Positions 1 to 63,538 of a stretch of DNA of 64,000 nucleotides are shown here, piece after piece. This DNA is from Escherichia phage wV7. Under the pieces are notes generated by a model that was not told the origin of the DNA, searched no databases, and was given only the letters and a program-made list of their open reading frames with translations. Position 1 is the stretch's first letter. The number at the start of each line of letters is the position of its first letter. The DNA lies in sequence record NC_019505.1; one strand, 5' to 3'. A program made the position numbers and the translations under genes.

Positions 1-1283
1 GGAATGTACTTTTTAATAATAGCACCTTTAATACCAGAATCTTTGAGCATATCAGTCAAAATTCCTCGGTGGTATTTTTCCATTACTAAATTAGTTTTTG
101 TCTTAACAATTTTATCAAGTTCTTCTTGAAGCAGTGCTATTTCATCAGCATGGTCAATAAACTCAGAAGATGCTTTTTCTATAGCTGCTTTAACTTTTTT
201 AGCTTTATCTACCGTCGTGATTAGAGATTGCTTTTTATTGCGAATATCATTTGCCAACGACTGCTGAGTTTTAATATTATCTCGGTATTCATCAACAAGA
301 ACTTTTAAATTATCACGGTGTGTTGAAAGCTGTTCAAACGAATGCGTACATTCAGAAACTTTATCTTTAATTTTAGAAACAACTTTATCACCGGAACTTA
401 ATTGTGACAAACAGGTTGGACATAATCCACCTTCGTGATACATATTAATGACTTTATTGTACGAGTCAATTTTTGATTTAATTAAAACTGCTTCTTGACC
501 GATTTTATTAAATGCATCAGTCGGGTCTTCGTCTAAAACAATATTAACTAATCTTTCATTAGCTTCTTCTATTTCCGATTTTAGCGTTCTAGCTTCTTTT
601 GCCAAATCATCGTACATATTCTGCAGACGAGTAAGATTGTCACCCGTTAATTTTTTCTGGCGTTCAACGTTATCATTATATATTTTAATTTGTTGGATAA
701 TACTATCTTTTTTAACATCAAGCACTTGGTTCTGCGAATTTAATTCGCGTATTAGTGCTTTATTAAGCTTATCCATTTCAGCTAATGTTCCTACCTCAAG
801 CAGGTCTTCCACAAGCTTTCTTCGTGCAGGGGTCGACAAACCCATGAAAGGGGTATACCCTGCTGTACCAAGGACAACAATCTGCTTGAAACTGGCATAT
901 GACATTCCGATAAGCTGTTCAAATTCTGCTTGGAAATCTTTACTGCTGGCAGATTCATTAAGACGTGTACCATTAATGGTGATTTCGAAAACGTTTGGTT
1001 TTTGTCCTCTTTTGATATAGTACTTTTTCTCATCATATTCCATCCACAGTTCAACTAAAAGTTCTTTCTTATTTGTGCTGTTTATTAATTGACCTTTCTT
1101 TACATCACGAAATGGCTTGCCAAAAAGCCCAAATGTGATGGCTTCTAACATAGTAGACTTACCACCGCCATTTCGTCCAGTAATAAGAGTTTTTTGAACC
1201 TTATCTAATTGAATGTCAATAGGATTTCCACCTACTGACATTATATTTTGATACCTAACTCGGTTTAGTTTAAAATTCTTCAC
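1..1283 (-). CDS. 46: Recombination endonuclease subunit gp46 (Rad50/SbcC-like ATPase), N-terminal part; gene continues past window edge
   Basis: Minus-strand frame reads (V/M)KNFKLNRVRYQNIMSVGGNPIDIQLDKVQKTLITGRNGGGKSTMLEA with Walker A; GTG start at 1281-1283 preceded by AGGAA; absent from ORF track because no ATG and open at edge. Confidence 0.85.
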   Translation of the reverse strand, partial: MKNFKLNRVRYQNIMSVGGNPIDIQLDKVQKTLITGRNGGGKSTMLEAITFGLFGKPFRDVKKGQLINSTNKKELLVELWMEYDEKKYYIKRGQKPNVFEITINGTRLNESASSKDFQAEFEQLIGMSYASFKQIVVLGTAGYTPFMGLSTPARRKLVEDLLEVGTLAEMDKLNKALIRELNSQNQVLDVKKDSIIQQIKIYNDNVERQKKLTGDNLTRLQNMYDDLAKEARTLKSEIEEANERLVNIVLDEDPTDAFNKIGQEAVLIKSKIDSYNKVINMYHEGGLCPTCLSQLSSGDKVVSKIKDKVSECTHSFEQLSTHRDNLKVLVDEYRDNIKTQQSLANDIRNKKQSLITTVDKAKKVKAAIEKASSEFIDHADEIALLQEELDKIVKTKTNLVMEKYHRGILTDMLKDSGIKGAIIKKYI

Positions 1284-28329: not shown

Positions 28330-28650
28330 TTATTCTTTAAATCTAATCAATTTATTCATAGACTTTGAAACTTCTGCACGAACCTCGTGTAGATTTTTAA
28401 GCTGTTCAAGACGTTGCTCATAGTAAGCAATTTCATCTTCTTCGAGGCAGTCCTGTGAATCTTCTTTAAGATAACGTGCATAGTCCTGGAAAGCTTTACG
28501 GACTACTTCCTGGAAATCATCAAGACTTTGAATTTTCTTAGGAGCAACAGATACACGACGAGGGGCAGTATAATACTCATAACCAAACCCTGCGCTTAAT
28601 TGAGCCATTAGTATTTTTCCTCTGGTTGGAACACTGCGCGACAAGCCCAC
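28330..28650 (-). CDS. Hypothetical protein (vs.3 position)
   Basis: 106-aa ORF. Confidence 0.5.
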
Positions 28651-28910
28651 ATACTAGCTTCTTTGAGTTTCGTTTTAGCAATAGTTAACTGATCGAGGCT
28701 TTCAGCATAATTCTTCGCGAGTTCATCATCTTCACAGCTATCGAATGCTTCCCAGAATTCATCGTATAAAGCATCAAAGATAAGTCCTAAACGAACTTCA
28801 GCGTCTTTGATAGCATTCACTTTACCGATTTTCTCTTCAGTATGCGGCTTATAACCTTTAATGTCTTCAATCATATTTGACTTCCTCACCAGTACATAAA
28901 TCATATTCAA
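28608..28910 (-). CDS. Small protein at vs.4 position (possible Acb2-like cyclic-nucleotide sponge); start uncertain
   Basis: About 90-100 aa acidic protein; assignment is positional only (T4 vs.4 is Acb2). Confidence 0.45.
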
Positions 28911-29088
28911 CTAAACGAATAGGTTCATGAATGCCATATCCTTGAACAGAAATTTCTGTCGTAGGATAAATTCCATCAATATCACCCATATTCCAGGCTT
29001 CATTAAATTGCTGTTCGCCTGAATTACTAAACCACTCGGCGAAAGCATTTAGCACATCTTTAGAACCTTCAATAATTATCTTTGCCAT
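28867..29088 (-). CDS. Hypothetical small protein
   Basis: 73-aa ORF. Confidence 0.45.
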   Translation of the reverse strand: MAKIIIEGSKDVLNAFAEWFSNSGEQQFNEAWNMGDIDGIYPTTEISVQGYGIHEPIRLVEYDLCTGEEVKYD

Positions 29089-29450
29089 TACAAACTCTCA
29101 GTAAAGGTACGAGCGATAACGTCGCGCTGCTGTTCCGGAGTCAGAGAGTTAAAGCGAACTGCATAACCGGATACACGGATGGTCAGCTGCGGATATTTTT
29201 CCGGATGCTTAACTGCATCTTCCAGAGTTTCACGACGCAGAACGTTAACGTTCAGGTGTTGACCACCTTCAATTTTAACTGTAGGTTGTGTTTCAATTTC
29301 AATTTCACGGGCATGCAAACCGTAGAAAATTTCTGGGTCTACAAAAGAGTCCTCTTTAAAGGTTTTAGAGACAATAATTCGTGCTTGAATACCATCTTCA
29401 AAATAAATAGTACCTTTATGTGTGCCTTCAAGAATTTGATATGCTTTCAT
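29088..29450 (-). CDS. Autonomous glycyl-radical cofactor, GrcA/YfiD-like
   Basis: 120 aa; C-terminal [59 protein letters not shown] matches the E. coli GrcA C-terminus as I recall it; GC-rich 3' half. Confidence 0.8.
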
Positions 29451-29457
29451 ATAAACC

Positions 29458-29787
29458 TCAATTAGAAAATAAATTTATCCAAGATTGTTCTTTAATTAAA
29501 AATGGCTCAGAATCATATGCCATTAAACTTTGGGTGATTAGTCCTTTAAAAGGTCCATCAATAAATTCCATGGTAAAATATGGAATTTTATTCATTAACT
29601 GCGCGTTAGGAGCAGTGCACAAAACTCTGCATCCTTTGAATACGCCTTTTTGTAATTTGTATTGCTTGGGATAAAATTCGCTCAAAATGTTATTATTTGC
29701 CAAAATTTCAAAATGATTCACCAATTTATTTTTAATAGTTTTTGGCGAAAAATAAAGATATTCGAAAAGCTGTGTGTCTGTCATCAT
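29458..29787 (-). CDS. Hypothetical protein
   Basis: 109-aa ORF. Confidence 0.5.
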
Positions 29788-30374
29788 TGCATTCCAATCA
29801 CAAAAAATTGAGGACGAACTGTTTCACCTGTTTCAGCATTATAGCTTCGACAACAGTGTTGTACCGTTTTAATATGGATATTGTAAATCTTATCCATATC
29901 AGGAGCTTTAATAGGTTCGTCAATTATGTACAAGATACGAGAAAGCGATAACCCACGGAATTTATGACCTTCATTACCGATAAAACTACGGACAGAATCA
30001 GTAAATAAACGGAATCGAATATCATCATTAGAATAACGCGAAAATTCCTTTTTAATGTTATTTGCAGAAATTTTAGCGTAAGCTGAAGTATTAGAAAGAA
30101 CAATAACTGTTCCGCCATCATACAGCCAATTAGCAGCAAAGTTAGTCACAGCAATTGATTTACCGGATTGACGTCCACCATCTATACGAAGTGTGCAGTA
30201 CTGTTTGAGCACATCTTCCATTGGTGGAAGATAATCATTCTTACAAATTTCTTCTACTCTAGCATCAGAATGGTGTGTAAAAGCATTCATCAGGGATAGA
30301 TAAGGACCAGTTAAAAATGTTCTCATTTTATTCTCTCTAAGTTTGGGCCATTCCGTGGCGCATGAATTGTCCAT
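29784..30374 (-). CDS. Small P-loop NTPase of unknown function
   Basis: 196 aa; Walker A GGRQSGKS and Walker B-like ILYIIDE. Confidence 0.55.
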   Translation of the reverse strand: MDNSCATEWPKLRENKMRTFLTGPYLSLMNAFTHHSDARVEEICKNDYLPPMEDVLKQYCTLRIDGGRQSGKSIAVTNFAANWLYDGGTVIVLSNTSAYAKISANNIKKEFSRYSNDDIRFRLFTDSVRSFIGNEGHKFRGLSLSRILYIIDEPIKAPDMDKIYNIHIKTVQHCCRSYNAETGETVRPQFFVIGMQ

Positions 30375-30467
30375 TTCTGTATTTACCCATTACCGCACTT
30401 GGGCTCGACCTTATCACAGGTTGGCGGGAATCCCTCACAGAATCATGAGGTCCAGGTTGTTCCCATA

Positions 30468-30941
30468 TTATTTGAACGATTTAACGTACTGAATAGAACC
30501 CTTACTATTCACAAAGGCAATTTTACCATTTTTATTATACATGGTAGCAGTACGCTGATAACCATAGGTTTGTTTACCAGATTGATAACCAACTAATGCA
30601 AAATTATCTTCACCCATTTTATTCTGTTTAGCGCGAATGCGTTCATGACCATGTGCCATAAGAACCTTAGCATCACCAGTTGCAATGGATCGACGAGTTT
30701 TTTCATCTTCAACTGCATTAACAAAGTCGTCAAATGAATCAAATTTAGCATGAGATTTATTATACAATTTTCCATCTACTGCATAATTATATCCCTGTAC
30801 ATCCATCTCAACTTCTGTACCATCATCCAATACAGCAGTAATTTTTTGACCTTTTTTAAATTTCAAAAGATCAGTAAAAGATTCAGCAATAATTTGAGAA
30901 TTAATAGCTGCTTCAGTGATAAATTCTTGATATGTTTTCAT
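30468..30941 (-). CDS. Internal head protein-like, with capsid targeting sequence
   Basis: 157 aa; N-terminus MKTYQEFITEAA is the T4 internal-protein leader with an L/I-x-E prohead-protease site; sits directly downstream of denV. Confidence 0.7.
   Translation of the reverse strand: MKTYQEFITEAAINSQIIAESFTDLLKFKKGQKITAVLDDGTEVEMDVQGYNYAVDGKLYNKSHAKFDSFDDFVNAVEDEKTRRSIATGDAKVLMAHGHERIRAKQNKMGEDNFALVGYQSGKQTYGYQRTATMYNKNGKIAFVNSKGSIQYVKSFK

Positions 30942-60397: not shown

Positions 60398-63538
<3,141 letters not shown>

Follow-up and report, generated by a model that had tools for sequence, protein, structure and literature searches.

Gene vs.8 of Escherichia phage wV7: a probable stand-alone relative of the terminase ATPase core behind a conserved leader with a candidate structured RNA

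We examined the locus around an open reading frame (ORF) on the minus strand of Escherichia phage wV7, within a stretch of 64,000 nucleotides (nt) of record NC_019505.1 (hereafter the window). An initial annotation had placed the ORF at 29784..30374 and read its 196-residue product, with the motifs GGRQSGKS and ILYIIDE, as a small P-loop NTPase of unknown function. ORF and motifs are present in the ORF list as described. The genome is that of a T4-like phage, and the ORF is its gene vs.8, annotated as such in phage RB51. Across the surrounding 2.5 kb, identity is 100% to Escherichia coli O157 typing phage 7 (ECTP7) and 99.5% to RB51 (Tequatrovirus), and 840 phage records match this region. The protein matches PHROG 1488, the T4 Vs.8 family, over its full length (E 1.4e-79, residues 3-180 of 180), and is 86.7% identical to T4 Vs.8, the very product that had been proposed for comparison; unknown function remains a fitting description of the biological role, yet the gene itself is not anonymous. 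In the annotations of RB51, ECTP7 and T4 it occupies the orthologous position, between the endolysin and internal-protein genes on one side and regB on the other. The T4 gene is an orthologue at the same place in the e - regB string and of the same length from the conserved start, differing in its upstream neighbour, which is denV in T4 and Ip4 in the window. In the ECTP7 record (KP869105, 78502..81019), vs.1, vs.3, vs.7 and vs.8 are all labelled "endoribonuclease RegB", apparently a spill-over from the true regB that is propagating into protein databases.

The true start of vs.8 is the second ATG of the ORF, at 30326, and the protein has 180 residues, not the 196 first assigned (table 1). Both RB51 and ECTP7 records place the start at the equivalent ATG, and all aligned homologues begin there with M[KRN]-x-(F)L, 17/17 in an alignment with identities down to 41% and 36/36 in one reaching down to ~20%. 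The PHROG 1488 profile alignment begins at residue 19 of the 196-residue ORF; the second ATG has a purine-rich AGAGAGAA 4 nt upstream, the first has none. A 1-nt indel separates T4 from the window just before the conserved ATG, so the upstream extension is not conserved in frame. In the T4 record MT984581, Vs.8 is annotated with 216 residues (L011 2390..3040), its first 37 codons running over the conserved leader; given the same indel, this version and the 196-residue version of the window extend in different frames. The T4 extension is probably wrong, and both look like annotation artefacts.

Table 1. Coordinates of the features of the vs.8 locus, and of gene 17, in the window (residue numbers refer to the 180-residue protein).
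Feature	Position	Strand	Basis
vs.8 coding sequence, 180 residues + stop; putative stand-alone terminase-type P-loop ATPase module	29784..30326	-	RB51/ECTP7 annotation, PHROG 1488, T4 identity, dN/dS
False 16-codon N-terminal extension; leader, not coding	30327..30374	-	homologue starts, T4/window 1-nt indel
Walker A / P-loop G50-G-R-Q-S-G-K-S57 (R52, K56, S57)	30156..30179	-	invariant in 17-sequence alignment; gp17 S161-RQLGKT167; strand-loop-helix in model
F123-R124-G125, candidate arginine finger ("RG" arginine), 12 residues ahead of Walker B	29952..29960	-	conservation; gp17 V244-R245-G246
Walker B L132-Y-I-I-D136-E137 with predicted catalytic glutamate	29916..29933	-	E137, P138 invariant; gp17 M251-IYIDE256; end of strand 131-136
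C-terminal G178-M-Q180 directly after predicted last strand (174-177); protein end	29787..29795	-	G178, Q180 invariant in 17-sequence alignment; strand from model
Conserved non-coding leader, 141 nt, Ip4 stop to vs.8 start	30327..30467	-	1001 phage records
Structured RNA core (candidate)	30376..30432	-	covariance-model match, P1 covariation, no Rfam family
vs.7, vs.6 (GrcA-like), vs.5, vs.4 (Acb2), vs.3 (TadIV-1 orthologue), co-directional downstream	28330..29787	-	ORFs, annotation, Pfam
vs.4 (Acb2)	28608..28874	-	Pfam Acb2_Tad1_hairpin
vs.3	28330..28608	-	
Internal-protein gene, Ip4 type	30468..30941	-	Pfam DUF7412
gp17 ORF	61703..63535		
gp17 segment aligned by the vs.8 profile, residues 142-264 (ATPase core)	62126..62494	+	hhalign

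In an AlphaFold2 model built from the family alignment (predicted local distance difference test, pLDDT, 79; predicted template modelling score, pTM, 0.79), vs.8 is a single RecA-type domain, probably a P-loop ATPase of the additional-strand catalytic-E (ASCE) division. The predicted elements are, in order, helices 6-27 and 36-43, strand 45-47, the P-loop, helix 56-69, strand 73-78, helix 81-96, strand 107-111, helix 112-117, strand 131-136, helix 144-159 and strand 174-177, followed by G-M-Q and the stop. The Walker A motif, GxxxxGK[ST], falls in the loop that joins strand 45-47 to helix 56-69; the Walker B motif, hhhhD with its catalytic glutamate, closes strand 131-136 with D136-E137. Invariant in the 17-sequence alignment are D49-G-G-R-Q-S-G-K56, R113, R124-G125, R130 and E137-P138, and G51, R52, Q53, G55, K56, R113, R124 and G125 are conserved in at least 90% of the 36-sequence alignment. 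The Walker motifs are thus not there by chance, and the gene is real and constrained. The terminal G178-M-Q180 may possibly occupy a gamma-phosphate sensor position, to judge from its place after the last modelled strand. The suggestion of a small P-loop NTPase is borne out, both motifs lying at P-loop-fold positions in the model and in the profile alignment to the T4 large terminase gp17 (residues 161-167 and 251-256); the outcome that was to overturn it, motifs in non-equivalent positions, did not occur when both were compared. The further suggestion of a kinase-like or generic regulatory NTPase, that is, a protein of the kinase/GTPase (KG) division, fared worse. The small size and the P-loop would suit it, as would a single weak profile match each to uridine-cytidine kinase (E 1.2) and the signal recognition particle receptor (E 0.016). 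The marks of that division, a Walker B motif without a following catalytic glutamate and a kinase lid or NKxD-type specificity motif, were not found in vs.8; the domain appears to be of RecA-type ASCE kind, with the terminase gp17 as its best solved relative, and a KG assignment is extremely unlikely.

The relationship to gp17 emerges from profile comparisons. Run against all PDB sequences, the 36-member profile returned gp17 as its top three matches (E 8e-5, 9e-5 and 2e-4). In an hhalign comparison of the vs.8 family with the gp17 encoded in the window (probability 90.4%, E 1.4e-6), residues 30-145 fall on 142-264 at ~18% identity, with G50-GRQSGKS57 on S161-RQLGKT167, F-R124-G on V-R245-G and LYIID136-E137 on MIYID255-E256. 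The gp17 numbering in this alignment agrees with the positions of Walker A, Walker B and the catalytic glutamate in the gp17 literature. PHROG 2 (terminase large subunit) is matched by 24 of the 36 family members, with a best E of 3.9e-8, and weakly by the single vs.8 protein (E 6e-5); half of the family (18/36) gives a sub-threshold match to Pfam Terminase_6N (PF03237). [quoted passage not shown] Several results weigh against the assignment. Terminase_6N matches stay at 12.8-13.1 bits, below the gathering threshold of 22; pairwise BLASTP between vs.8 and gp17 is not significant and misaligns the P-loop; structural scores fail to separate terminase from superfamily 2 (SF2) helicase RecA1 domains; and the homology is visible at the profile level only. 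Searched singly, the vs.8 protein has no match above threshold in Pfam or NCBIfam, and phmmer against PDB sequences gives insignificant matches only (a TraB-like coupling protein, E 0.4). Overall, we put the probability of this reading at about 0.8, a figure that refers to the identity of the gene, its fold class and the terminase homology and leaves the role aside.

Compared with gp17 ATPase subdomain I (T4/RB49; PDB 2o0h, 3cpe, 3ezk), vs.8 is without the 140-residue N-terminal region; the segment aligned to the YQ sequence of gp17 is variable; and its last strand ends in G-M-Q where gp17 carries the coupling motif TTT (285-287), the alignment itself stopping at gp17 residue 264. ATPase subdomain II and the RNase H-like C-terminal nuclease domain are absent, the protein ending 3 residues past the last core strand, and no member of the vs.8 family has an added C-terminal domain. 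Since the N-terminal 140 residues, the conserved YQ, TTT, subdomain II and the nuclease are all missing, vs.8 is best regarded as a homologue of the ATPase core and not as a terminase, and the missing parts would make translocation or DNA cutting of the gp17 type impossible for it. The verdict of the initial annotation that the protein is too small for a helicase or terminase was right on size, yet it missed the remote homology to the terminase ATPase core. As regards helicases, many DEAD-box RecA1 domains are among the nearest structural matches; Foldseek against the PDB returned nothing at E <= 1e-3. The two tandem RecA-type domains of SF2 helicases were not found: vs.8 is one 180-residue domain with structural matches to RecA1 only and, unlike DEAD proteins, has neither a second RecA domain nor a Q motif; Pfam DEAD gave no significant match (one of 36 family members at E 0.08). 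The N-terminal ATPase domain of phi29 gp16 (PDB 5hd9) is another packaging ATPase of similar size (194 residues) and of the ASCE group, but the similarity is weak (Foldseek E 9e-3, template modelling score 0.46), and gp16 is an essential motor part with a C-terminal domain.

By tblastn, vs.8 is found in 1008 of 50,697 phage records, with 80% or more of the protein matched in 1006, and the ratio of nonsynonymous to synonymous substitution rates (dN/dS) is 0.09-0.26 in Tequatrovirus pairs with unsaturated dS; vs.8 is under purifying selection. The family is a small one, a profile search of 1.84 billion cluster representatives having returned only 48 at E <= 1e-3. Full-length family matches have nearly all 157-185 residues, a few carrying N-terminal extensions (233-259 residues), and none has an added domain. 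The contigs long enough to judge are all T4-type (6/6: five looked up, plus a Gelderlandvirus with a 176-residue ORF matching the family start and P-loop pattern). The placement between endolysin and regB is kept in three diverged T4-type contigs (24-30% protein identity), and one T4-type homologue lies elsewhere, between gene 39 and rIIA. BFVD holds similar small uncharacterised proteins from Aeromonas, Acinetobacter, Vibrio and Stenotrophomonas phages and from jumbo phages. In phage T2 (LC348380; L052 401..933), two separate 2-nt deletions split vs.8 over three frames; this copy is likely a pseudogene, or possibly a sequencing error, although a 57-residue T2 fragment is present in BFVD as well. 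The most distant members of the 36-sequence alignment (P0055, P0062, P0065) have G-H-[ST] for G-K-[ST] and lack the Walker B D-E; they come from short metagenomic contigs only and are possibly a sub-branch that is inactive or works differently. The disruption in T2, shortened versions in some phages and the distant members with GH[ST] and without the DE pair could be taken to mean that vs.8 is a decaying, functionless relic of a duplicated terminase gene. We consider this very unlikely in view of the near-complete coverage across phage records, the low dN/dS, catalytic residues kept down to ~30% identity and a synteny maintained across T4-type genera.

From sequence, vs.8 thus presents itself as a stand-alone, constrained ASCE module, with all residues for ATP binding and hydrolysis and with a conserved candidate arginine finger. 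Most probably, vs.8 and the N-terminal ATPase core of gp17 are related from ancient times, vs.8 being the cut-down form. It has retained the terminase-style P-loop G-R-Q-x-G-K-S/T, the RG arginine, the Walker B aspartate and the catalytic glutamate, and it ends right after the strand bearing motif III in terminases and helicases, with no lid subdomain. Such a protein is expected to bind ATP-Mg and probably hydrolyses ATP. It would most likely work as an oligomer, with R124 supplied in trans as in terminase rings; in P74-26 TerL, the trans-acting finger is R139, ~10 residues before Walker B (PDB 4znj being the R139A mutant). Alone, it should be incapable of translocating or cutting DNA. One conceivable use of such a module is as a packaging regulator that co-assembles with gp17 or caps it through the shared ATPase interface, for instance giving or blocking the trans arginine and so restraining the terminase ATPase or nuclease or tuning motor assembly. 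The homology falls on precisely the portion of gp17 from which the ring interface is built, the RG and P-loop arginines are conserved, and both proteins are encoded in one genome. Yet vs.8 has accessory genes for neighbours in the early tk-e region, a long way from genes 16 and 17, and in one case lies between gene 39 and rIIA; at ~18% identity to gp17, conservation of the interface is doubtful; and T2 packages its DNA with a disrupted copy. A role in packaging is, on balance, unlikely.

In RB51, the minus-strand order is e, denV, Ip4, vs.8, vs.7, vs.6, vs.5, vs.4, vs.3, regB, vs.1, vs. The placement of vs.8 upstream of the internal-protein and denV genes, as given in the initial annotation, holds in plus-strand coordinates only; along transcription the order is e, denV, Ip4, vs.8. 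The internal-protein gene is of the Ip4 type (Pfam DUF7412, E 9e-96) and not one of the ipII/ipIII genes of T4, and with Ip4 adjoining vs.8 and denV upstream of Ip4, the region is rearranged relative to T4. Downstream, the start of vs.7 overlaps the stop of vs.8; a Pfam Gly_radical match (E 2e-18) marks vs.6 as GrcA-like, and vs.4 is the sponge Acb2, directed against the cyclic-oligonucleotide-based system CBASS (Pfam Acb2_Tad1_hairpin, E 8e-20). In T4, the orthologue of vs.3 acts as a sponge against type IV Thoeris and is named TadIV-1; in the same work vs.3-vs.8 were expressed on plasmids from "the promoter of vs.8" (PMC13243611).

Between the stop of the upstream gene and vs.8 lies a GC-rich leader that has matches in 1001 phage records (in 383 at 95-99% identity) and that follows whichever gene precedes it, Ip4 in the window and denV in T4. 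The vs.8 coding sequences of T4 and the window are only 86% identical (dS 0.5); the leader RNA is a short element far more constrained than the gene behind it. A covariance model, searched over the loci retrieved in this analysis, matches the window at 72.7 bits (E ~1e-20). The motif has ~41 nt, a 3-bp helix P1 closing a segment of ~35 nt in which 26 nt are invariant (24-25 when L003, the locus of a vs.8 homologue of 27% identity, is added). Over 26-28 distinct motif versions, all three P1 pairs covary (GCC/GGU, ACC/GGU, ACU/AGU, UGG/CCA, GCG/CGU, GGC/GCU and GCC/GGC), with 95-96% of P1 cells paired; pairing reaches 98-99% of cells when the full proposed structure is counted, versus 15-46% with the partner slid, and the observed covariation score was reached by none of 500 shuffles. 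Many G-U pairs fit the vs.8-sense strand only. The interior of the motif admits two rival folds, one with pairs 12-25 / 29-41 and one with pairs 11-44 / 12-41, with one compensatory event each, and a variable stem-loop with compensatory changes of its own lies 5' of the core. The register of the closing helix given by RNAalifold, shifted by one, was rejected because it is broken in N4-sized contigs, the chosen register keeping 95-96% of cells paired. Folded as a single sequence, the leader does no better than shuffles (z = 0.7). It contains no tRNA or tmRNA, a scan of it for sigma-70 promoters and terminators found nothing, and Rfam at E <= 1-10 returned noise only and no family for the motif.

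The core is not confined to T4-type phages. At 83-95% identity it recurs in Vequintavirus (rV5-like) phages and in N4-sized (46-70 kb) contigs, always as one copy per locus, and a same-strand tRNA cluster lies within ~0.05-1.2 kb of it in 16 of 21 loci outside T4-type phages. No match was found in 5,426 E. coli genomes, which argues against a host mimic, nor in 185,579 prokaryotic genomes, which argues against carriage by prophages; a text search of the literature for the leader sequence gave nothing. In rV5-like loci (L012 1600..1640, L022 ~700..740), GC-rich hairpins stand 3' of the motif, and a sigma-70 promoter close to consensus, TTGACA-17-TGATAAAAT, lies ~100 nt downstream, followed by a small ORF, a tRNA cluster and, ~2.5 kb on, the large terminase gene. 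A general link between motif and terminase gene was considered in view of this downstream TerL in rV5-like phages and dropped, since the N4-sized contigs show none. In 46-70 kb contigs (L016, L017, L020, L023, L024, L027), a ~20-nt GTGCTCTTTCCGTTGTGGTG and its variants recur every 150-300 nt near the motif and the tRNA genes; this repeat may be a phage-specific promoter or processing signal.

Could vs.8 work together with its own leader, as an RNA-dependent ATPase or an RNA- or tRNA-handling factor? The motif precedes vs.8 even at 27% identity (L003), the many DEAD-box RecA1 domains among the structural neighbours would agree with an RNA substrate, and in 16 of 21 loci without vs.8 the motif adjoins the tRNA genes described above. 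Yet motif-bearing phages outside T4-type genomes have no vs.8-like ORF nearby; the motif is missing before three other vs.8 homologues (L004, L007, L008); a lone RecA domain has no known mode of clamping RNA; and the motif may be a mere cis-regulatory element or a 3'-end element of the upstream gene. We regard an RNA-linked ATPase as quite improbable. For the motif itself, we see an even chance that it is a real, functional and undescribed structured RNA element. Ribozymes, elements that bind ligands or proteins, and RNA-processing signals are typically conserved to this degree; the candidates here are a small ribozyme, an element bound by a protein or ligand, and one that serves processing or stability. 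Of the whole locus, the motif has the best claim to be new, vs.8 and its terminase-like nature being already known. The leader RNA is common to at least two unrelated lytic coliphage families and to N4-sized contigs; it accompanies tRNA clusters and has no counterpart in Rfam.

As to the role of vs.8, the published evidence comes from an in-silico screen of the proteins of T4 and of the T4-like phage PhiC120 against the immune sensor EcAvs2 (Nature Communications, August 2026; bioRxiv, May 2026; PMC13601566). T4 vs.8 was toxic if expressed together with EcAvs2 and was modelled inside the pocket of Avs2, bridged by an ATP; the authors left the function of the non-terminase activators open, naming an anti-defence role as one possibility (PMC13601566). 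Going by the published description, vs.8 resembles Ksap1 and Ksap2, small, taxon-limited phage proteins that are similar to the terminase ATPase fold and activate Avs2 on co-expression (PMC13601566). It differs from them in that terminase sequence homology and intact Walker motifs are reported for vs.8 only (PMC13601566), and in that Ksap1 and Ksap2 are primary Avs2 triggers during infection, whereas vs.8 is reported as an activator on co-expression. Our own preference, a weak and tentative one, is that vs.8 may be an accessory protein at the host-defence interface, an ATP-dependent mimic of the terminase ATPase directed at terminase-watching host sensors. An ATP-loaded look-alike of the terminase ATPase domain could engage host proteins that bind terminase; the published toxicity with EcAvs2, a terminase sensor, indicates that a host protein is able to recognise vs.8. 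Its accessory status and its presumed transcription together with the sponges Acb2 (vs.4) and TadIV-1 (vs.3) would agree with such a role. Other considerations tell against it. Triggering a cell-death sensor harms the phage, so recognition by Avs2 may be a liability and not a clue to function; a passive decoy would have no need of turnover, yet the strictly conserved catalytic glutamate and RG arginine suggest that turnover is real; and little weight attaches to gene neighbours in the T4 early region, where the same string also includes regB and a GrcA-like protein. The literature found contains neither biochemical nor genetic tests of vs.8 during infection, and PADLOC models gave no consistent defence-system match.

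By itself, the recognition of a P-loop adds little, since vs.8 is a named T4 gene whose terminase homology and recognition by Avs2 were published in 2026. The puzzle lies elsewhere: some 1000 sequenced T4-type phages keep a stand-alone copy of the terminase ATPase core that appears catalytically intact, despite a widespread sensor of precisely that fold. An answer would bear on how phages coexist with pattern-recognition immunity aimed at an essential enzyme.

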